A stretch of 64,000 bases of DNA from an uncultured Methylomirabilota bacterium (GTDB lineage: Bacteria; Methylomirabilota; Methylomirabilia; Methylomirabilales; 2-02-FULL-66-22), in NCBI GenBank assembly GCA_963727695.1, contig CAVSHW010000039.1:7770-71769 (forward strand). Reading direction: 5' to 3'. Position numbers and translations under genes: made by a program. Of this stretch, positions 3,368 through 64,000 are shown piece after piece; within the stretch, counting starts at the first letter, position 1, and every line of letters begins with the position of its first letter. Under the pieces are notes generated by a model that was given only the letters and a program-made list of their open reading frames with translations, searched no databases and was not told where the DNA came from.

Positions 3368-3777
3368 GTATTTTCTATCTTCAGCCAAATCTTCCCAAGA
3401 GTAAGATATCATAACGGAATTTCATTCGTGCACCGAGGTTGGCGCAGCATGGCAATAGGGAGGGCAAGGAACGCTCAGACGGGTATCGGAGAGCATTTCA
3501 GAACAACGAGAAATCCTGGTGGATATGTTGGCTATGACGCGACCAGGAATGCGATCGACATGGGCGAGGGTTGGGGACGCCCACGCTGCTGGCCAGGCGG
3601 TCCCGTCGGCCGACGATGATCCCGTCCAGGCCCCTTCTATATCTTCTCCTCTCGAATCCCTCACAGGCACTGGGCTGTTCTTCTCGACACGATTTAGAGT
3701 GGAATCCTGTGGAGTGGACGATTGTTCCCTCTTCCGTGGTAGGGCGATATACTGGTTGCATGAGGAGGGAAACAGCT

Positions 3778-4422
3778 ATGGAAACGCGGCGGAGCTTCAT
3801 GCGATGGGTATTCGGGTGTCTTCTCGGGGGCGGCGTGCTGCTCGGCCCTCTCTCGTCCGCGATGCGGCGGGCGTGGGCGGCGAGCAGGAAGATTCTGGCC
3901 AAGGGGACCAAGAGAGAAAGTCTGATCCAAGAAGACCCGGCTGGACTCGATACGACCAACCTGGAGATCACGCCCCTGGAAGAGTTCGGGACCATGGGCC
4001 AAACCGACAAGGTGGTGGACCCCACCGCGTGGCGGCTGGAAGTCTCCGGAAAGGTGAAGCGGGCTTTGAGCTTGACCTACGCCCAGATCACCGCCCTGCC
4101 CTCCATCGAAAGGGAGGTGCTGTTGATCTGCCCAGGGTTTTTTGCCAATCATGGGCGGTGGAAAGGATTCTCCCTCAAGAGGCTCCTGCAGCAGGCAGAG
4201 GTCGATCGCAGCGCGGGTCGGGTCACCATCGAGGCACGTGGGCAAAAGACTGCACGGTTTCCCCTGGCGGATATTCTCTCCGACAAGGTCTTTCTGGCCT
4301 ACCAGGTGAACGGCAAGGATCTGCCCCGGAAACACGGATCCCCGCTCCGCGTGGTCGCGGAGGATCACTATGGATCCGACTGGGTGAAGTATGTCGACAG
4401 GATCTCGGTTGAAACGACGTGA
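3778..4422 (+). CDS. Small Tat-exported molybdopterin-binding oxidoreductase domain protein (sulfite-oxidase/YedY fold, 214 aa)
   Basis: Within track ORF 3571..4422. GAGGAGG precedes the ATG at 3778. Twin-arginine signal METRRSFMRW. WRLEVSGKV...LTYAQITALP...LICPG...GSPLRVVAEDHYGSDWVKYVDRI matches Oxidored_molyb proteins. Confidence 0.8.
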   Translation: METRRSFMRWVFGCLLGGGVLLGPLSSAMRRAWAASRKILAKGTKRESLIQEDPAGLDTTNLEITPLEEFGTMGQTDKVVDPTAWRLEVSGKVKRALSLTYAQITALPSIEREVLLICPGFFANHGRWKGFSLKRLLQQAEVDRSAGRVTIEARGQKTARFPLADILSDKVFLAYQVNGKDLPRKHGSPLRVVAEDHYGSDWVKYVDRISVETT

Positions 4423-6432: not shown

Positions 6433-6505
6433 CGTTGTCAAAGAATAAGGAGCCGTAACGAAATTCCAATAGACGGACAAGTTATTTCGTAACGGCTCCT
6501 AAACT
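6433..6505 (+). repeat. Hairpin repeat family 2, copy 1
   Basis: CGTTGTCAAAGAATAA, then stem GGAGCCGTAACGAAAT (6449-6464), a 19-nt loop, ATTTCGTAACGGCTCC (6484-6499) and TAAACT. Near-identical to 33844-33946. Confidence 0.8.
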
Positions 6506-10793: not shown

Positions 10794-10984
10794 CAGGATG
10801 CTGAAAGACTCACTTTTCGGCAGGCTGCTCAAAAGGGCCCAGATGCTAGGCGGCCCGCGAAGGGCGGGGTACCCACCGCGGGTGGGTCCAGGCGTACTTC
10901 CGGTACGCCGCAGCGAGTGCCCGAGCAAGCGGGGTACCCAGCCGCCGGCTGGGTCCCCGCAGATGGGCCCTTTTCAGCAGCCTG
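10794..10984 (+). repeat. Nested-palindrome repeat family 1, copy A
   Basis: CAGGCTGCTCAAAAGGGCCCAGATGC...GGCGTACttccgGTACGCCGCAGCGAGTGC...GCAGATGGGCCCTTTTCAGCAGCCTG. A degenerate outer motif lies at 10794-10810. The right end abuts the glgP stop codon. Confidence 0.9.
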
Positions 10985-13516
<2,532 letters not shown>

Positions 13517-19727: not shown

Positions 19728-19900
19728 CAGCAGGCTGCTGAAAAACCCGATTTCGCCCAGGCTGCTCAAAAAGGTCCAGATGCGAGGCGGCGCGCGATGG
19801 GCGGGGTACCCACCAGAGGTGGGTCCAGGCGTACACTGGGTACGCCGCAGCGAGTGCCCAAGCGCGACAACGCTGCAGATGGGCCTTTTTCAGCGGCCTG
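19728..19900 (+). repeat. Nested-palindrome repeat family 1, copy B
   Basis: Outer CAGCAGGCTGCTGAAAAACC, inner CAGGCTGCTCAAAAAGGTCCAGATGC, apical GGCGTACactggGTACGCC, right arm GCAGATGGGCCTTTTTCAGCGGCCTG. Confidence 0.9.
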
Positions 19901-19914
19901 TTAGAAGGACAGCG

Positions 19915-23519: not shown

Positions 23520-23689
23520 CAGGCTGCTGAAAAAGGCCCATCTGCTGCGTTGGCTTGCTTAGGCACTCGTTGCGGCGCACCCCAGTACGCCTCACTCGGC
23601 CTCGGGTACCCATCCAACAGGATGGGTGCGCCGCCTTGCATCTGGACCTTTTTGAGCAGCCTGAGCAAAGCGATCTATCAGCAGCCTGC
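23520..23689 (-). repeat. Nested-palindrome repeat family 1, copy C (inverted orientation)
   Basis: The reverse complement has the same architecture as B and D, including the outer motif. Apical hairpin GGCGTACtggggTGCGCC. Confidence 0.9.
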
Positions 23690-23938
23690 TATATGCCTAT
23701 CCCGCCGTCGATGGAGATGCTCGCGCCATTCATGAAGGCGGCCTCGTCTGAGGCCGCGAACAGGATGGCGGCGGCGATCTCCGATCCGTGCCCAGCCGGC
23801 CCATGGGCTGGCGCGCGATGAAGTCCGCCCTGGATTTCTCGGGATCGGCAAAGGCCTGGATCCGCCGCCCCCGTGCTTTCGCATCTCCGGAATCGCGTGT
23901 TTCGAGACCAGGAAGGGCCCTTTCAGGTTGACCGCCAT
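23689..23938 (-). pseudogene. Remnant of an SDR oxidoreductase
   Basis: Three frames on the minus strand carry NLKGPFLVSKHAIPEMRKHGGG, then IQAFADPEKSRADFIARQPMGRLGT, then EIAAAILFAASDEAAFMNGASISIDGGIGI-stop. The N-terminus and catalytic middle are missing. Confidence 0.65.
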
Positions 23939-23950
23939 CGTCCGGCCGAT

Positions 23951-24763
23951 CTATCGCACCGCGACCACGTCCCCCGTGTCGAAGCCGGGGCGGATGAAGG
24001 CGCGGGCGTCGGGGAAAGTCGCCTCGATGTCCCGGCGCAGTCGGCTGAGGGTGGCCAACAGGGGCAGGATCTGGTCCTCCTCGTCGGGCAACTGACGGAG
24101 CATCTCTGACCACGCGGCCAACGACCGATCGATGCCGATCAGGGCCACTTTGGCCGAACCGTCGGCATCACTACGGTCAAGCCCGATGTCGATCTCGTCG
24201 TCGCGTCGCAGAGAACCAACCGCCCGCACGATCTTGACGGCGATCTGGTGCTGGTACCACCGGATGACCTCCGTTGCTTCCTGCAGGCGTAGTACGTCTC
24301 CTTCCGGGTCCGCCCCGGGGAGCCCCATCCGGTCCAGCCGCTCTAGCTCCTCGCCGCGCTCCTGAAAGCGGGGATCGGCCTGCTCGAACCAGGCCTCGAC
24401 GGCCGCGCGGTACTCGCCGGCGGCGATGGCGCAGGGATGGCTCCAGGCCTCGTCATGCCACCGCGCCATCTCCCGTGCCGCCTCCGCATCCAGCGGGGGA
24501 AGCACGATGCCGCGCTCCTCCAGCATCTCATCGAGCATCTCGTGCGCCTCGCGGAAGATCTCCCCCAGGCGGTCCCAGAAGGCCCGATTGTTGATGTCGC
24601 GCGAGGCCGGATCCCCGCAGTCCTCCTCCTGCTCCGTCGCGTACACGAGACAGCGCGATGTCAGCGGGCACCGCTCGCACCACCGGTCACAATAGTTGTA
24701 CACACCGGAGATGATCTGCGGATCTCCCACCAGCTCCTTCAGCCTGCGTCGCCTTGCGGCCAT
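23951..24763 (-). CDS. Hypothetical protein with N-terminal CxxxCxxCxxxxxC motif
   Basis: Track ORF 23951..24796. Preferred start MAARRRRL at 24763 (GAGAGGGGAG upstream); alternative start at 24796. VYNYCDRWCERCPLTSRC, then an acidic helical protein. Confidence 0.7.
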   Translation of the reverse strand: MAARRRRLKELVGDPQIISGVYNYCDRWCERCPLTSRCLVYATEQEEDCGDPASRDINNRAFWDRLGEIFREAHEMLDEMLEERGIVLPPLDAEAAREMARWHDEAWSHPCAIAAGEYRAAVEAWFEQADPRFQERGEELERLDRMGLPGADPEGDVLRLQEATEVIRWYQHQIAVKIVRAVGSLRRDDEIDIGLDRSDADGSAKVALIGIDRSLAAWSEMLRQLPDEEDQILPLLATLSRLRRDIEATFPDARAFIRPGFDTGDVVAVR

Positions 24764-24796
24764 GACGTCTCCCCTCTCGGCTACTTGGCTTCCCAT

Positions 24797-24949
24797 AGCA
24801 GGCTGCTGAAAAACCTGTTTCGCCCAGGCTGCTCAAAAAGGTCCAGATGCAAGGCGGAACGCGCAGAGCCGAGTGAGGCGTACTCCAGGTACGCCGCAAC
24901 GAGTGCTCGAGTGTTCCAACGCCGCAGATGGGCCTTTTTCAGCAGCCTG
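24797..24949 (+). repeat. Nested-palindrome repeat family 1, copy D
   Basis: AGCAGGCTGCTGAAAAACC...CAGGCTGCTCAAAAAGGTCCAGATGC...GGCGTACtccagGTACGCC...GCAGATGGGCCTTTTTCAGCAGCCTG. Abuts the arfB stop. Confidence 0.9.
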
Positions 24950-25375
24950 TTAGTCGTCGATCACCCCGGGCGGCTTTCTGGTCTGTTTTGCCTGCCCGTG
25001 CCGGCGTTTCGTCTCCAGCCGGCGCACTCTCGACGCCCTCGATGGCTTGGTCTCCCTCCGCGGCTTCGGCTTCTCGACGGCCTTGCGAACCAGCAGCACG
25101 AGCCGGTCGATCGCATCCCGGCGGTTCGCCTCTTGCGTCCGGAACCGCCTGGCCTCGATGGAGAGCATCCCGTCCTGTCCGACTCGTCTGCCCGCCAGAC
25201 CCAGCAGCCGCGCACGAACCTCTTCCGGCAGGGAGGGGCAAGCACGGACGTCGAACCGCAGGCGCACCGCCGTCGACACCTTGTTGACGTTCTGCCCCCC
25301 GGGACCGGAAGCCCGGAGGAACTCGAAGCGGAGCTCCCCTTCATCTATGGCGATGCTGTCGTTGATCTGGATCAT
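24950..25375 (-). CDS. arfB: Alternative ribosome-rescue factor ArfB (peptidyl-tRNA hydrolase, GGQ)
   Basis: FLRASGPGGQNVNKVSTAVRLRFD plus a basic C-terminal tail. 141 aa. Confidence 0.9.
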   Translation of the reverse strand: MIQINDSIAIDEGELRFEFLRASGPGGQNVNKVSTAVRLRFDVRACPSLPEEVRARLLGLAGRRVGQDGMLSIEARRFRTQEANRRDAIDRLVLLVRKAVEKPKPRRETKPSRASRVRRLETKRRHGQAKQTRKPPGVIDD

Positions 25376-33843: not shown

Positions 33844-33946
33844 CGTTGTCAAAGAATAACTTGACCGGAGATATTCCGAAAACGGCATAAGGAGCCGTAA
33901 CGAAATTCCAATGAATGGACAAGTTATTTCGTAACGGCTCCTAACT
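33844..33946 (+). repeat. Hairpin repeat family 2, copy 2
   Basis: Same flank and the same 16-bp stem (33891-33906 / 33926-33941) as copy 1. The loop differs at 2 positions. A 31-nt insertion follows the flank. Confidence 0.8.
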
Positions 33947-36023: not shown

Positions 36024-37130
36024 CTACTTGAAGACACCCGCATCTCGGGCCGGCTTGCCGTATTCCCAGGATTCCTCGGGGCGGTAAAACTCGCGCCAGT
36101 CGGGGTAACGGTAACGCCCGATGTCGCGATCCCGCGGGTACATAATCATCCCGCCCGGCTGCATGATGATGGCCTTCATGCTCGGGTTCCGCTTCGCGAA
36201 GACCCACTCCACCTCGCCGGGGTCGGAGGCGACGTTCCCCCAGGTCTCCCAGTGAAAGGGGATAAATCGTTTTGCCCGTAGCGACTCCATGATCATATAG
36301 GCGTCGTATGGCGTGGGCTTGTCTTTGCCCCCTGGGGCATTGTTCCCGATGTTGAAGATCGCCAGGTCGATGTCGTACTTGTTGCCCAAGGTCACGTAGG
36401 CGTTGTGGTACAGCGTATCGCCTAGAAACAGGATGTTTGCCCCCTCCGTCTTGAACAAGTACCCGACGGCCACCTCGCGGAAGGGCCGGGTTTGCCCCGG
36501 CTTCTTTGCGAAGGTGTACGTGGCGATCACGTCGAAGTTCTCGGTCACCTCGATCTCAACGTCGTCCACCGCGATCTTCATGCCGGGTTCCGCGATGTCG
36601 ATCCGCTGCTCTGGCATGCCGAAGATCCGCATGCGTTCCACCGTCGACATCGGGCCAACGAAACGGCAGCCAGTCGTCTGGTTGTACGCCTTGAGGCTGT
36701 AGATGTCGCAATGGTCGGCGTGCTGGTGGGTGCAGAGTGCATAATCCAGCTTCTCGAAGCGCCAGGGATTGAACACCTGCGGGTAGAGGCGGAACCAATT
36801 GATGTACGGCGCGCCGGTTGTGCGGCAGACCCCGCAGCTCGTCTCCTCGGTGTAATGGGACGGGCCGGCATAGCTATCAATGATGAAGATGCGGCCGGCG
36901 GCGCTCTTGATGAGGAACGTGCCCGCGCCAAACCACCACAGACCCACTTGTCCTTTCTCGACCTTCGTCATCGCGACCTGCCGGTTGAGGAAGTGCCCCC
37001 ACTCTGGGAAACACTCCTCCCGCCACCGTGCCTCGTCCATCGGCCGGTCCTGCGTCAGTAGGTACCCCCCGCGCATGATCCCCCGACCGTCGTTCTTGGG
37101 ATCCGCCTGCACCATGGGATCGTCAATCAT
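36024..37130 (-). CDS. UlaG-like metallo-beta-lactamase-fold lactonase (paralog 2)
   Basis: FPEWGHFLNRQV...GLWWFGAGTFLIKS, HxHxDH as THQHADHCD, YLFKTEGANILFLGDT, IPFHWETWGN. Collinear with E. coli UlaG as I recall it. Start MIDDPMV at 37130. Confidence 0.8.
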   Translation of the reverse strand: MIDDPMVQADPKNDGRGIMRGGYLLTQDRPMDEARWREECFPEWGHFLNRQVAMTKVEKGQVGLWWFGAGTFLIKSAAGRIFIIDSYAGPSHYTEETSCGVCRTTGAPYINWFRLYPQVFNPWRFEKLDYALCTHQHADHCDIYSLKAYNQTTGCRFVGPMSTVERMRIFGMPEQRIDIAEPGMKIAVDDVEIEVTENFDVIATYTFAKKPGQTRPFREVAVGYLFKTEGANILFLGDTLYHNAYVTLGNKYDIDLAIFNIGNNAPGGKDKPTPYDAYMIMESLRAKRFIPFHWETWGNVASDPGEVEWVFAKRNPSMKAIIMQPGGMIMYPRDRDIGRYRYPDWREFYRPEESWEYGKPARDAGVFK

Positions 37131-37221
37131 AGTCTCTTTCTCCTCTCGTGAGTTGCGTGGTAGATGCCAGGCATCCTCTGAGAGCCGCGAGCCAGGCGGA
37201 TCATTTCGCGCGAGCGGTCGG

Positions 37222-38322
37222 CTATTCGAATGCGCCAGCGGCGCGGGCCGGCCCGCCGTATTCCCAGGAACACTCCGGGCGATAGTTCTCGCGGCTGTCC
37301 GAGTATCTGTATCGTCCGATGTCTTTGTCTCGTGGGAAAACGATCGCCGCTCCGGGCTGCAAGATGATGGGCCTGATTCTTGGATTCCTCTTAGCAAAGA
37401 TCCACTCGACCTCGCCGGGATCGCTGGCCACATTGCTCCACGACTCCCAGTGGAACGGGATGAAATAGTCGGCTTTCAGCGCCTCCATGATCATGTACGC
37501 ATCATACGGCGTGGGTTTGTCCAGAGCACCCGGCGCATTGTTGCCGATATTGAATATCGCCAGGTCGATGTCATACTTCTGGCCAAGCAGCACGTACGCG
37601 TTCTGGTACAGCGTATCACCCAGGAACAGGATGTTGCCTCCTTCGGTCTTGAACAGGTATGCGACGGCCACGTCGGCGAAAGGCCGGCGTTCCCCCGGCT
37701 TGGAGGCGCCGGTGTACGTGGCGATCGTATCGAAACAGGGCACCACCTCGATCTCGGTCGCGCCGTACTTTAGGGTGTCTCCGGGCTTGACCCGCGCGAT
37801 GCGGTCTTCGGGCACCTTGAAATTTCGGAATCGCTCCACACAGGATAGCGGGCCGACAAACGGGCAGTCGGTCGTCTGCAGCGCCGCCTTGATGGTATAG
37901 ACATCGCAATGGTCTGAATGGTGATGGGTGGAAAGGGCCGCGTCCAGCCGGGCGAAGCCCCAGGGATCAAATACCTGCGGCCATAGCTTCATCCAGTTGA
38001 TGGTCGTCGCGCCGCTGGTCCGGCAGACACCGCAATTCTGATATTCGGTGTAGGACGAAGGCCCGGCATAGCCGTCCACCAGGAAGACCTCTCCAGTACG
38101 TGTCTTGAGGACGAAGGACGGCCCACCGAACCACCACAGGTTGACCTGCCCTTGCTCGACCTGCGCATCCCGGATTTGGTTGTTGAGGAATGTTCCCCAT
38201 TCGGGAAAGACCTCGCGCAGCCATTGATCCCGATCCATGGGGCGGTCGACCGATTGCATCCAGGTAGCGCGCATCACTCCCCGTCCATCATTCTCAGGAT
38301 CATCCCACCTCATCGTGTTCAT
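37222..38322 (-). CDS. UlaG-like metallo-beta-lactamase-fold lactonase (paralog 1)
   Basis: FPEWGTFLNNQI, THHHSDHCD, YLFKTEGGNILFLGDT, IPFHWESWSN. Start MNTMRWDD at 38322 (GAGGAGGTGAGA RBS). Roughly 60-65% identical to the neighbouring paralog. Confidence 0.8.
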   Translation of the reverse strand: MNTMRWDDPENDGRGVMRATWMQSVDRPMDRDQWLREVFPEWGTFLNNQIRDAQVEQGQVNLWWFGGPSFVLKTRTGEVFLVDGYAGPSSYTEYQNCGVCRTSGATTINWMKLWPQVFDPWGFARLDAALSTHHHSDHCDVYTIKAALQTTDCPFVGPLSCVERFRNFKVPEDRIARVKPGDTLKYGATEIEVVPCFDTIATYTGASKPGERRPFADVAVAYLFKTEGGNILFLGDTLYQNAYVLLGQKYDIDLAIFNIGNNAPGALDKPTPYDAYMIMEALKADYFIPFHWESWSNVASDPGEVEWIFAKRNPRIRPIILQPGAAIVFPRDKDIGRYRYSDSRENYRPECSWEYGGPARAAGAFE

Positions 38323-38508
38323 TCTCACCTCCTCGGACGGTCCCGTTGGGACTATGGAGATTGCGAGCGAACCAATCATGCCGCTGCCGTGCCGGTGTCA
38401 TCACGGCCAGCGGCCTGCCCGCATATCGGCCCGGAGCGAACGGCACGGTCCTGCCGGGCATGCCGTGCTCCCCCGGCGGCAGTCGGGCAGAGATCTTCGG
38501 ACGGGTGC

Positions 38509-62141: not shown

Positions 62142-62277
62142 GAGATTTTCCTCCAGAGTGAATTCCTTGCCGATGGCGCCTCGAGTGTTCCGGCGGACGT
62201 CCTCCGCACAACACGGGGGTGAGTGCCCGACCACCTCCTTCCGAATCCCAGGTGTGTCTAGATAACTCGTCTTCACC

Positions 62278-62402
62278 CAGGCTGCTCAAAATGGCCCAGA
62301 TGCAAGGCGGAACGCGAAGGGCCGAGCGAGGCGTACTCCAGGTACGCCGCAGCGAGTGCTCAAGCGGTCCAACGCCGCAGATGGGCCGTTTTCAGCAGCC
62401 TG
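62278..62402 (+). repeat. Nested-palindrome repeat family 1, copy E (shortest)
   Basis: CAGGCTGCTCAAAATGGCCCAGATGC...GGCGTACtccagGTACGCC...GCAGATGGGCCGTTTTCAGCAGCCTG. 1 nt from the permease stop. Confidence 0.9.
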
Positions 62403-62403
62403 C

Positions 62404-63387
62404 TCAACTGGTCTCGCTGGCCAGGGCCTTCCGGGCCCACTGATCCACGAGCACGGCGACGATGATCAAGGCTCCCAGGACCACCCCCTGCCACACGGAC
62501 TCGATGCCCAGCAGGTTCATGCCGTTCTGCACGATGGTCATGATGAGCGCCCCGATCAGCGTGCCCACGATCCCGCCCTCTCCCCCGAAGAGGCTGGTGC
62601 CGCCAATCACCACGGCGGCAATCGCGGGCAGGAGCATGTTGGCGCCGATCCCCGCCTCCGACGCATTGAGGCGCGCCACGTAAACCAGCCCGGCGGCCGC
62701 GGCCAGCAGTCCGCTCAGGGTGTAGGCCAGGATGAGTGTCTGATCTTTCTTCACGCCCGAGAGGCGGGCCGCCTCTTGGTTGGCGCCCACCGCATAGAGC
62801 GCCCGGCCAAAGGTGGTGTGCCGCAGGAGCAGATAGGCGGGGATCCAGAGCACCGCCATGAGGATGATCGGCATGGGGACGCCCAGGAGGTTTCCCACGC
62901 CCAGGAAACGGAAGTCGTCCTTGAACCCGTAGATCACCTGCCCCTTGAGCAGGACCACCGAGAACCCGAAGGCCACCCACATCATGCCGTAGGTGGCGAT
63001 GAAGGGGGGCAGCTTCACCACGGCCACCATCAGCCCGTTCAGGAACCCCAGCCCCGCGCCCACCACCAGGCCGGCGGCCAGCGCCAGCGGGAGGGGGACG
63101 CCGGTCTTGATCGCCACGGCGGCGATGACGCTGGAGAAGGTCAGCACCGCGCCGATGGAAAGGTCGATGCCGGCTGTCAGGATGACAATGGTCTCGCCGA
63201 TGCCCAGGATAACCAGGAGGCTGGCCACGCGCAGGACATTCAGGGCGTTGGTACCGGTGAAAAAGACCGGCGAGGCCGCCGTCAGGACGATGCACAGCAG
63301 ACCCAGCACGAAGAGCCGGGAACCGGTATACAGGATGCGGGGGTCTAGGCGCCACCCGCGGGGCTTGACGTCTGCGGCGCTGGTCAC
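62404..63387 (-). CDS. Sugar ABC transporter permease (RbsC type)
   Basis: GTG at 63387 overlaps the upstream stop (GTGA). NALNVLRVASLLVILGIGETIVILTAGIDLS. Confidence 0.9.
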   Translation of the reverse strand: MTSAADVKPRGWRLDPRILYTGSRLFVLGLLCIVLTAASPVFFTGTNALNVLRVASLLVILGIGETIVILTAGIDLSIGAVLTFSSVIAAVAIKTGVPLPLALAAGLVVGAGLGFLNGLMVAVVKLPPFIATYGMMWVAFGFSVVLLKGQVIYGFKDDFRFLGVGNLLGVPMPIILMAVLWIPAYLLLRHTTFGRALYAVGANQEAARLSGVKKDQTLILAYTLSGLLAAAAGLVYVARLNASEAGIGANMLLPAIAAVVIGGTSLFGGEGGIVGTLIGALIMTIVQNGMNLLGIESVWQGVVLGALIIVAVLVDQWARKALASETS

Positions 63388-64000
63388 TGGATGACCCCCC
63401 TCTGCTTGAGCAAGACGTCGAAGATGATGGCCGCGATGATGACCAGGCCGATGAGCGCCGGCTGCCACATCGCCCCCACGCCGATGACGTTGAGCCCGTT
63501 GCGCAGCACCGAGATGAGCAGCACGCCCAGCACCGTCCCGCCGAGGGTCCCGTTGCCCTTCTCGAAGCTGGTCCCGCCCAGGATCGTCGCCGCGATGGCG
63601 TCGAACTCCCAGCCGTTGCCCACGATGGGGTCGGCGGCGCGCAGACGCGCGGCCATGATGACCCCCCCGAGAGCGGCCAGGGCCCCGGCGGCGACGTAGG
63701 TCAGGAACTTCCACCAGGCGGTGTTGACCCCGGAGAGCCGAGCGCCCGCCTCGTTCCCGCCGATGGCGATGATGTACCGGCCGAAGTCGGTCTGGTAGAG
63801 CGCGATCCAGCCTAGGATGAAGACCAGCACGGCAATCACCGTCGGCATGGGCAGGATGCCGAGGGATCCGCCGCCCAGGAAGATGAAGGCGGGCTCGCCG
63901 GAATAGATGGCCCCTTGCCGGGTCAAGACCAGCGCCAGTCCCGCGGCAATGCCCATCATGCCCAAGGTCGCGATGAAGGGGGGCAGCTTGCCCGCGGTGA
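63384..64000 (-). CDS. Sugar ABC transporter permease, partial (N-terminus beyond window end)
   Basis: The frame stays open past the track's TTG start (63965): ...TAGKLPPFIATLGMMGIAAG... C-terminus ...VIGVGAMWQPALIGLVIIAAIIFD. Confidence 0.85.
   Translation of the reverse strand, partial: TAGKLPPFIATLGMMGIAAGLALVLTRQGAIYSGEPAFIFLGGGSLGILPMPTVIAVLVFILGWIALYQTDFGRYIIAIGGNEAGARLSGVNTAWWKFLTYVAAGALAALGGVIMAARLRAADPIVGNGWEFDAIAATILGGTSFEKGNGTLGGTVLGVLLISVLRNGLNVIGVGAMWQPALIGLVIIAAIIFDVLLKQRGVIQ

Follow-up and report, generated by a model that had tools for sequence, protein, structure and literature searches.

A family of hairpin-forming MITEs inserted at YTAR sites and next to stop codons in Methylomirabilota

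Five copies in one genomic window

The stretch of DNA analysed here (64,000 nucleotides from an uncultured Methylomirabilota bacterium, hereafter the window) carries five copies, A to E, of an imperfectly palindromic repeat that lie 1-37 kb apart, in both orientations, among housekeeping and transporter genes (Table 1). An earlier note, made from the letters of the sequence, had placed five copies in this stretch, and two counts lead to exactly the same five loci. The terminal motif CAGGCTGCTSAAAA, with up to two mismatches allowed, is matched 15 times in the window where 0.59 matches would be expected, a number reached by none of 100 shuffles, and all 15 matches are confined to loci A-E. A search of the window with a family profile built from 81 members returned five cores and no others. 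The arms and the apical hairpin described in that note are seen in all five loci, and all copies are intergenic, as it stated.

Four of the five copies (A, C, D and E) have their right end 0-1 nt from a stop codon. Copy A abuts a glycogen-phosphorylase gene (10985..13516, minus strand), the CTA of its right flank being the TAG stop codon of that gene, and copy D abuts in the same manner a gene encoding an RF-1-domain (ArfB-like) protein (24950..25375, minus strand), whose TAA stop codon is the TTA of the right flank. The right end of copy E is 1 nt from the TGA stop of a BPD_transp_2 permease gene (62404..63714, minus strand), and a periplasmic-binding-protein gene is found on its other side. 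Copy C has a short ORF on one side and a fragment of an SDR gene on the other. The right end of copy B, which neighbours a URO-D-like gene, is 14 nt from a stop codon.

Table 1. Coordinates of the five copies, their parts and the target-site duplication of copy A (OL, outer-left arm; IL, inner-left arm; R, right arm).
Feature	Position	Strand	Remark
Copy A, full mobile unit	10794..10984	+	core by profile search 10821-10984, nhmmer E=3e-23
Copy A, parts	OL 10794-10809; linker 10810-10820; IL 10821-10846; R 10959-10984	+	
Copy A, left target-site duplication CTAA	10790..10793	+	same 4 nt as right flank
Copy A, right target-site duplication CTAA	10985..10988	+	
Copy A, mini-hairpin module 1	10868..10890	+	GGTACCCACC-GCGG-GTGGGTCC
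Copy A, mini-hairpin module 2	10933..10957	+	GGTACCCAGCC-GCCG-GCTGGGTCC
Copy B, full unit	19731..19900	+	core by profile search 19758-19900
Copy B, parts	OL 19731-19746; IL 19758-19783; module 19805-19827; apical hairpin 19828-19846; R 19875-19900	+	
Copy C, full unit	23520..23688	-	core by profile search 23520-23663
Copy C, parts	R 23520-23545; module 23605-23630; IL 23638-23663; OL 23673-23688	-	
Copy D, canonical unit	24799..24949	+	core by profile search 24825-24949
Copy D, parts	OL 24799-24814; IL 24825-24850; apical hairpin 24877-24895; R 24924-24949	+	
Copy E, with OL and linker remnant	62251..62402	+	core by profile search 62278-62402
Copy E, parts	125-nt core 62278-62402; decayed OL and linker remnant 62251-62277	+	

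Distribution

A pattern scan of a species-representative genome collection gave at least 107 matching stretches, and the matches listed come nearly all from metagenome-assembled genomes (MAGs) of Methylomirabilota (NC10, Rokubacteria/Rokuibacteriota, Methylomirabilia), including the closed chromosome OY970067.1. When arm pairs were recovered from the loci of the matches listed (773 kb) and from the window, 137 elements were obtained, and the family is represented by more than 130 copies from more than 20 MAGs, nearly all of them Methylomirabilota. Core length has its mode at 125 nt, with 58 copies; 13 more have 126 nt, and there are further classes at about 143-146, 163-166 and 183-188 nt. Among the matches listed, the MAG richest in copies is labelled 'Sulfotelmatobacter' and its loci have a G+C content of 71%, like those of Rokubacteria; because of the Rokubacteria-like G+C of such loci, labels outside Methylomirabilota are considered doubtful. 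The window shares 93.6% identity over 3.7 kb with a Methylomirabilota MAG from Lac Pavin (L084), which places it in this phylum.

Other DNA is devoid of matches as far as it was searched. No copy is present in 80 loci (417 kb) of unrelated metagenome DNA, a negative control that came from a metagenome scan with the RF-1-domain protein encoded next to copy D, in which relatives only, with about 60% identity or less, were found; an exact-protein look-up of this neighbour returned no record. A scan of viral contigs with the arm pattern gave 0 matches, and a blastn search of 72,556 plasmids with copy D gave none either. A literature search for earlier accounts of such a repeat, or of any MITE, in Rokubacteria, NC10 or Methylomirabilis gave none, and the family is undescribed in the literature searched.

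The mobile unit and its target site

In the mobile unit of about 152 bp, OL (CAGGNTGCTGAAAAAC) is joined by a linker of about 11 nt to a core of 125 nt, which is one long imperfect hairpin running from IL (26 nt, an internal second copy of the terminus) to R (26 nt, the right terminus). OL and R (...TTTTTCAGCAGCCTG) form terminal inverted repeats of 15-16 bp, to which the 26-bp IL is added as an internal copy. This layout differs from the one first proposed, in which the 26-bp inner pair was taken for the transposon termini, whereas the true ends are the outer-left and the right arm. A third, outer copy of the terminal motif had been noticed about 10 nt to the left of the inner arm, and it is indeed found at 9-11 nt in A-D. 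It had, however, been called degenerate in A and absent in E, whereas the outer arm of A (CAGGATGCTGAAAGAC) is one mismatch away from the family consensus CAGGATGCTGAAAAAC and is accompanied by an intact CTAA/CTAA duplication, and E still has a decayed remnant. The perfect 15-nt complementarity that was claimed between outer copy and right arm holds for D only, since there is one mismatch in B (right arm CAGCGGCCTG) and there are two in C.

Information on the target came from the nucleotides that border the unit. In the elements from the matches listed and the window, the 4 nt after the right arm are CTAG in 48 copies, TTAG in 19 and CTAA in 16 (most right ends read CCTG followed by CTAG), while the 4 nt before OL are CTAG in 26 copies, CTAA in 13 and TTAG in 5. 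Among the 70 copies with a recognisable OL in the matches listed, identical 4-mers are found on both sides in 23, against 11.8 by permutation (p<1e-4), and among the same 70 the non-palindromic duplications CTAA/CTAA and TTAG/TTAG occur six and four times, respectively, while the mirror combination CTAA/TTAG never occurs. Correlation between the two flanks is direct at position 1 and likewise at position 4. Since YTAR flanks pair directly and never as mirror images, they are direct repeats rather than extensions of the inverted repeats, and since the ten non-palindromic cases, one of which is copy A, have unrelated flanking sequence, they represent independent insertions. Of the other window copies, copy B has TTAG on its right (19901-19904) and a sequence decayed to CCAG on its left, its orthologue in the Lac Pavin MAG still having TTAG/TTAG intact; copy C has ATAG (23689-23692) and C plus CTAG, read in the sense of the element; and copy D has ATAG (24795-24798) and TTAG (24950-24953). 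The dominance of CTAG and the similar look of Tc1 ends also led to a 2-bp TA duplication, as in IS630/Tc1-like elements, being considered, and it was rejected because flank positions 1 and 4 correlate directly and not in inverted fashion.

Insertion, and with it the boundaries of the unit, can be read from a pair of orthologous sites, one filled (L096, GCCTATTAA[CAGGATGCTGAAAAAC...CAGCAACCTG]TTAGGGGAGGGGAGATG) and one empty (L065, GCCTATTAGGAGGAGGGGAGATG), in which the whole unit, including OL, has been inserted at a TTAG that holds the TAG stop of the upstream gene of an operon, 13 nt ahead of the start codon of the next gene. This is the one clean empty site, and alone it is also compatible with a 2-bp TA duplication and A...T termini; it is from the flank statistics that the 4-bp duplication is read.

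MITEs are defined as small elements (generally <200 bp, up to ~400 bp) with terminal inverted repeats and a target-site duplication, which have no transposase and form a long stem-loop (PMC3184786). By this definition the five repeats are MITE copies. The unit of about 152 bp with its 125-nt core (variants reach about 190-260 bp) is of the right size, has terminal inverted repeats and a flanking direct duplication, and is found in many dispersed copies, with a filled and an empty orthologous site. It has no internal transposase gene, 125-190 bp being too short to encode one, and its six-frame peptides match no Pfam or NCBIfam family. The non-autonomous, MITE-like mobile element suspected in the earlier note is thus substantiated by the target-site duplication and by the filled/empty pair.

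The search for a parent transposase

No transposase was identified among the low-GC ORFs of the window and the genes flanking the copies, nor did any of the ORFs between close pairs of copies look transposase-like by eye. In the 773 kb of loci, inverted arm pairs 450-4000 bp apart all turned out to be neighbouring MITEs rather than an autonomous parent, repeats longer than 350 bp were absent within any genome, and solo arms corresponded to contig ends or divergent subfamilies. A tblastn search with an approximate IS5 InsH query gave no match, which is a weak negative. The ends of the element (CAGG...) are not known to match those of the IS5 group. IS5 itself has a YTAR target of which all four bases are duplicated (PMC5009759), and YTAR is also the target of IS711 (IS5 family, IS427 group), an element with a preference for palindromic repeats (PMC2266754). 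The parent of the family can only be inferred, from this target choice, to be an IS5-like DDE transposase, because a conserved 4-bp duplication is shared by elements of the IS701 family (PMC2266710).

Insertion next to stop codons

The host genomes have a GC content of 64-71%, and in the window (64% GC genome) there are 68 YTAR sites where about 500 would be expected from base composition, an approximately 7-fold depletion. Many of the remaining YTAR sites are stop codons. When genes were filtered by codon bias (GC3 at least 0.75), 66 of the 137 copies from the matches listed and the window had a gene end precisely at R (TAG 43, TAA 15, TGA 8) and 11 of 71 had one precisely at OL, the TGA-abutting cases being one transition away from TAA. 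It is because YTAR is rare and largely located at stop codons that about half of the copies abut one, and the duplicated YTAR keeps the stop codon intact on the side of the gene. Among the copies with a recognisable OL, those with a stop codon at the R end outnumber those with one at the OL end by 33 to 11 (about 3:1), an orientation bias for which insertion preference and selection are both conceivable.

The hairpin core

Every copy in the window folds into one long hairpin, and the proposal that the whole unit can do so proved sound: for copy E an MFE of -75.5 kcal/mol (z = -7.9) was obtained, with 0 of 200 shuffles as stable, and copy D folded as DNA gave z = -5.9. In a consensus hairpin based on 75 distinct cores of 124-126 nt there are 40 pairs, 97.7% of the cells being paired, and changes have occurred on both sides in 16 of these 40 pairs (127 cells). 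None of 500 shuffles reaches any of the five pairing measures, and controls with slid partners are 34-42% paired. In the A5/T5 tract the four outer A-U pairs are invariant in all 75 sequences. Mismatches are conserved too (C.C at position 10 and GA/AG at positions 22-23), which makes IL a variant of the terminal sequence that is separate and itself conserved; OL has a G complementary to the C of R at arm position 10, and IL has a C.

The length variants are due to mini-hairpin modules of 20-25 nt (GGTACCCAnCC-N4-GGnTGGGTnC) with covarying stems, which sit in either orientation at no fewer than three internal positions. There are two of them in copy A, one in B and one in C. The orthologue of copy C in the Lac Pavin MAG is without its module, an indication that modules are gained or lost in place or by conversion. 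They occur 34 times inside elements (19.7 kb) as opposed to 5 times outside (the remaining ~753 kb), and the possibility that the GGTACCCA...TGGGT mini-hairpin is an independent mobile element was rejected on account of these figures. Two of the five outside occurrences closely resemble the module and may sit in copies missed by the pairing search.

Decay and conservation after insertion

The different parts of the unit are unequally conserved, majority-base frequency being 0.51 in OL and in the linker and 0.96 in IL and in R. When copies are arranged by the decay of OL, identical duplications go from 54% (OL with 0-1 mismatch) to 0% (OL with at least 8 mismatches), while the 52 arm positions gain mismatches only from 1.1 to 2.9. 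Two insertions are common to the window and the Lac Pavin MAG, and between their copies 6 of 104 arm positions are different, compared with 20 of 54 positions in OL plus linker (p=1e-6). This suggests that the IL-R hairpin is under secondary constraint. R is at the edge of the element as well, so gene conversion limited by the edges would not spare it, and a constraint on the IL-R stem is therefore favoured. In part, the conservation of the arms could nevertheless come from gene conversion or from repeated insertion at one site, since the shared copies differ in interior subfamily.

The hairpin is also asymmetric with respect to strand. The 'forward' strand folds better in 122 of 128 copies, by a mean of 8.6 kcal/mol, and in the consensus pairs G:U (171 cells) is far more frequent than A:C (19 cells), with C-G > U-G > U-A and G-C > G-U > A-U as typical series. 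The same preference for G:U over A:C is seen in both transcription contexts (28:4 for the forward and 28:8 for the reverse strand), and relative to the gene usually found at the R end, the strand favoured in folding is the antisense one. Since the bias is alike in both contexts, the asymmetry is a property of the family rather than evidence of local selection at the mRNA level, and a single-stranded stage or a master copy that is transcribed might lie behind it. A simple model of a 3' hairpin in the mRNA does not predict a bias that is antisense-favoured and independent of context. Deamination linked to transcription or replication was considered as the source of the G:U excess and rejected, since the bias runs counter to what the usual coding strand would lead one to expect and does not change with context.

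Interpretation and alternatives

Taken as a whole, these observations are very probably best explained by a hairpin MITE that targets YTAR and stop codons, is presumably mobilised in trans and retains its IL-R hairpin. The element would be mobilised by a DDE transposase with an IS5-like target choice (as YTAR suggests). The unit inserts at YTAR (CTAG, CTAA or TTAG) and duplicates these 4 bp, and the stop codon is preserved by the duplicate. After insertion, OL and the duplication decay, while the IL-R hairpin is kept through compensatory changes, with G:U intermediates on one strand.

The retained hairpin may be useful or simply tolerated, most plausibly, to judge from its sequence, as a bidirectional intrinsic-terminator-like or 3'-end-protecting structure for the gene whose stop codon adjoins it. 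Invariant A4-5/T4-5 tracts flank the G+C stem on both strands, and terminator-like features are present as GGNCCAGATGC...GCAGATGGGCC plus TTTTT on one strand and GGCCCATCTGC...GCATCTGGACC plus TTTTT on the other. The stem encloses an interior of about 75 nt, not a short loop, and a generic terminator scanner makes no call, loops in such a scanner being limited to 3-8 nt, which makes it blind to the element. The length of this interior, together with the copies found within operons (copy E and the filled site L096) and between divergent genes, speaks against a pure terminator role.

A rather unlikely extension of this would be that the inner 125-nt hairpin is a domesticated functional module, phylum-wide and under purifying selection, in which the three arms allow switching between OL-R and IL-R pairing. 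The hairpin would then be kept as a strand-specific, G:U-tolerant structure with its conserved mismatches and A/T tracts, and would act as a mobile bidirectional terminator, a processing site or a single-strand DNA structure, while the right end would switch between a transposition-competent OL-R pairing and an inert IL-R pairing. Two mutually exclusive pairings had already been put forward in the earlier note. They are thermodynamically possible in young copies, as in copy D, where the MFE fold of the full unit (forward strand) pairs via the outer arm; a conserved alternative-pairing switch, however, is unsupported, because OL is the least conserved part of the unit.

That same use of the outer arm in the MFE fold of young copies, along with the very stable fold, the strong covariation and the tolerance of G:U on one strand only, could be taken to indicate a structured RNA, either a small-RNA gene or a riboswitch-like or attenuator switch in which R pairs with the outer or the inner left arm, the copies being paralogous regulatory sites. 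We consider this improbable. Conservation is lowest in precisely the parts on which a switch or a promoter would depend, the outer arm and the linker, and the genes neighbouring the copies are functionally unrelated and found in all four orientation contexts, including divergent genes with a copy between them (12 cases). Target duplications and the empty site, moreover, point to insertion and not to vertical descent, and the strand bias is independent of the direction of transcription. An already described Rfam family, which the earlier note had allowed for, was not found either, with no match over the whole window at the gathering score and nothing relevant around copy D at E ≤ 1.

The REP-like option raised at the outset, namely a REP doublet (REPIN) that a RAYT (Y1/HUH) transposase would have spread by way of single-stranded hairpin DNA, finds some echo in the two-armed inverted doublet of about 125 nt, which forms a long hairpin and is close to a REPIN in size (PMC3116915), in the strand whose fold is favoured, as would be the case with a single-strand intermediate, and in the ~3:1 orientation bias relative to genes. 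REPs and REPINs are, however, defined by a short palindrome with a GTAG or CGTC head and by the absence of a target duplication (PMC3733652, PMC3116915), and this makes the option hard to believe, as the arms have neither head, single arms are not stable small palindromes and the flanks are direct 4-bp YTAR duplications, which HUH single-strand transposition does not make. In addition, the sequence is conserved throughout the phylum, unlike species-specific REPs, and no Y1 gene was seen beside the copies in the part of the loci screened. Finally, the notion that the repeats are attC-like sites of a sedentary chromosomal integron or another site-specific recombinase, marking gene cassettes, is hardly worth entertaining, for although imperfect palindromes of 125-190 bp lie directly after stop codons, with a conserved stem base, an apical structure whose length varies like the variable terminal structure of attC, conserved mismatches and one strand favoured, the ends (CCTG before CTAG in most cases on the right) are without RYYYAAC/GTTRRRY core sites, the copies are scattered and form no cassette array, the target is duplicated and there is no integrase among the genes examined.

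Spurious proteins and significance

The earlier note had warned that translation of the element could seed bogus hypothetical proteins in databases, and this has come about: one consensus reading frame matches 69 predicted proteins of 41-89 aa (JGI, ENA, NCBI), most of which are named 'hypothetical protein' and one of which is attributed to candidate division NC10. One of the 69 was encountered on 12 contigs, which represent a single locus in different samples. Masking the family would clean up gene calls in NC10 and Rokubacteria MAGs. If the density of five copies per 64 kb held, there would be about 400 per 5-Mb genome. Short-read assemblies break at a 125-nt repeat with >90% identity, and several of the examined contigs end inside a copy. 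The repeat may also serve as a phylum marker, copy-rich MAGs labelled as other phyla having a Rokubacteria-like G+C.

Beyond these practical aspects, the family offers a clean natural example of a YTAR-targeting transposon that the high GC content of its host directs to stop codons, which stay intact, and it is a candidate for a MITE hairpin maintained by constraint. Its notable features are the arrangement in three arms, this steering towards stop codons and a hairpin with a strand bias that remains conserved once the element has inserted.

Comparison with known systems

Among known elements, ERIC/IRU, the 127-bp MITE of Enterobacteriaceae, shares with the Methylomirabilota element its size, a full-length imperfect hairpin, terminal inverted repeats, TA-containing flanks, intergenic or transcribed sites near gene ends, spread through a large clade and the lack of a known transposase (PMC3184786). 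The two nevertheless differ in that ERIC is flanked by a TA motif whereas a 4-bp YTAR is duplicated here, and ERIC has neither a third, outer terminal repeat nor modular mini-hairpins; there is no sequence similarity between them and the host phylum is another one. Correia/NEMIS, a 104-157-bp MITE of Neisseria with 26-bp terminal inverted repeats, is alike in having 26-bp arms, a short and a long form, hundreds of copies, gene-adjacent insertion that affects transcripts and no known cognate transposase (PMC3184786). Unlike the element described here, Correia has an interior that is not a continuous hairpin, length variants that come from internal deletion rather than from added modules, and IHF sites and promoters, which were not seen in the present element. 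The target duplication of Correia is reported to be TA. With the IS5 family (IS5, IS711) the element has the YTAR target in common, and copies of the present family (family 1) sit at the CTAA end of palindromic repeats of a second one (family 2), which recalls IS711; in contrast to these insertion sequences, no transposase gene was found within the copies or in the DNA around them (773 kb). Lastly, a dispersed terminator-like repeat known from downstream of genes has a fold resembling an intrinsic terminator, as here (PMC3184786), but in the Methylomirabilota element the stem encloses about 75 nt, there is a T-tract on both strands and the whole is mobile, with duplication of its target.

Family-1 copies at shared and compound sites

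Copies B and C occupy insertion sites common to the window and L084, a locus of a Lac Pavin Methylomirabilota MAG, in genomes that are ~94% identical. Their interiors nevertheless differ between the two by 13-15%, or by the presence or absence of the module (the 20-25-nt mini-hairpin of longer copies), while divergence is 33-41% in the outer arm and linker, well above that of the flanking DNA. Divergence of interior, outer arm and linker at the same sites suggests either gene conversion between copies or re-insertion at an identical YTAR site. Elsewhere, family-1 cores are paired in tandem, head-to-tail, with a gap of 15-43 nt (L046 1346-1610 and L015 6730-7022), and L098 (2325-2579) has a core nested within a second.

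Many copies are found in DASPOZ01 (e.g. L004, L009 and L105) and DATHGT01 (L011 and L031), MAGs labelled 'Candidatus Sulfotelmatobacter' or 'Acidoferrum'. The G+C content of these loci is ~71%, as in Rokubacteria loci, and either their taxonomic labelling or the binning seems questionable. Copies with divergent interiors are also carried by contigs of 54-57% GC labelled Deltaproteobacteria or Thermodesulfobacteriota (L034 and L024).

Genes of the window

The dehydrogenase fragment adjoining copy C ends in ...SISIDGGIGI*, its TAG stop forming the left flank of the copy. It is frameshifted relative to the segment upstream (...NLKGPFLVSKHAIPEMRKHGGG) and is probably a pseudogene remnant. Near copy D lies a 281-aa ORF whose N-terminus is CxxC-rich and which matches nothing in Pfam. 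The ORF is likely to start at the second ATG, which is preceded by GAGGGGAG and would lie ~33 nt downstream of the outer arm of copy D. The metallo-beta-lactamase-fold paralogues share 73-79% DNA identity across ~500 nt, with a spacing of 1198 nt.

Features of the window discussed here
Feature	Position	Strand	Remark
Copy B	19731-19900		
Copy C	23520-23688		
Short-chain dehydrogenase, C-terminal fragment	23689-23938	-	
281-aa ORF	23951-24796	-	
Metallo-beta-lactamase-fold gene	36024-37433	-	neighbouring paralogue
Metallo-beta-lactamase-fold gene	37222-38379	-	neighbouring paralogue
Family-2 copy	6445-6502		95% identity between copies
Family-2 copy	33887-33944		

A second palindromic repeat

The window holds a second repeat family, a palindrome of 58 nt (ATAAGGAGCCGTAACGAAAT...ATTTCGTAACGGCTCCTAA). 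L091 carries two units of this family 2 (3744-3860), whereas the orthologous site in L071 (~2697) reads only ...TGC-TTAG-GAAGG; judging from this pair of filled and empty sites, family 2 is another MITE, with a TTAG-type target. In L066 and L049, the CTAA end of family-2 copies is itself the insertion site of family-1 copies.
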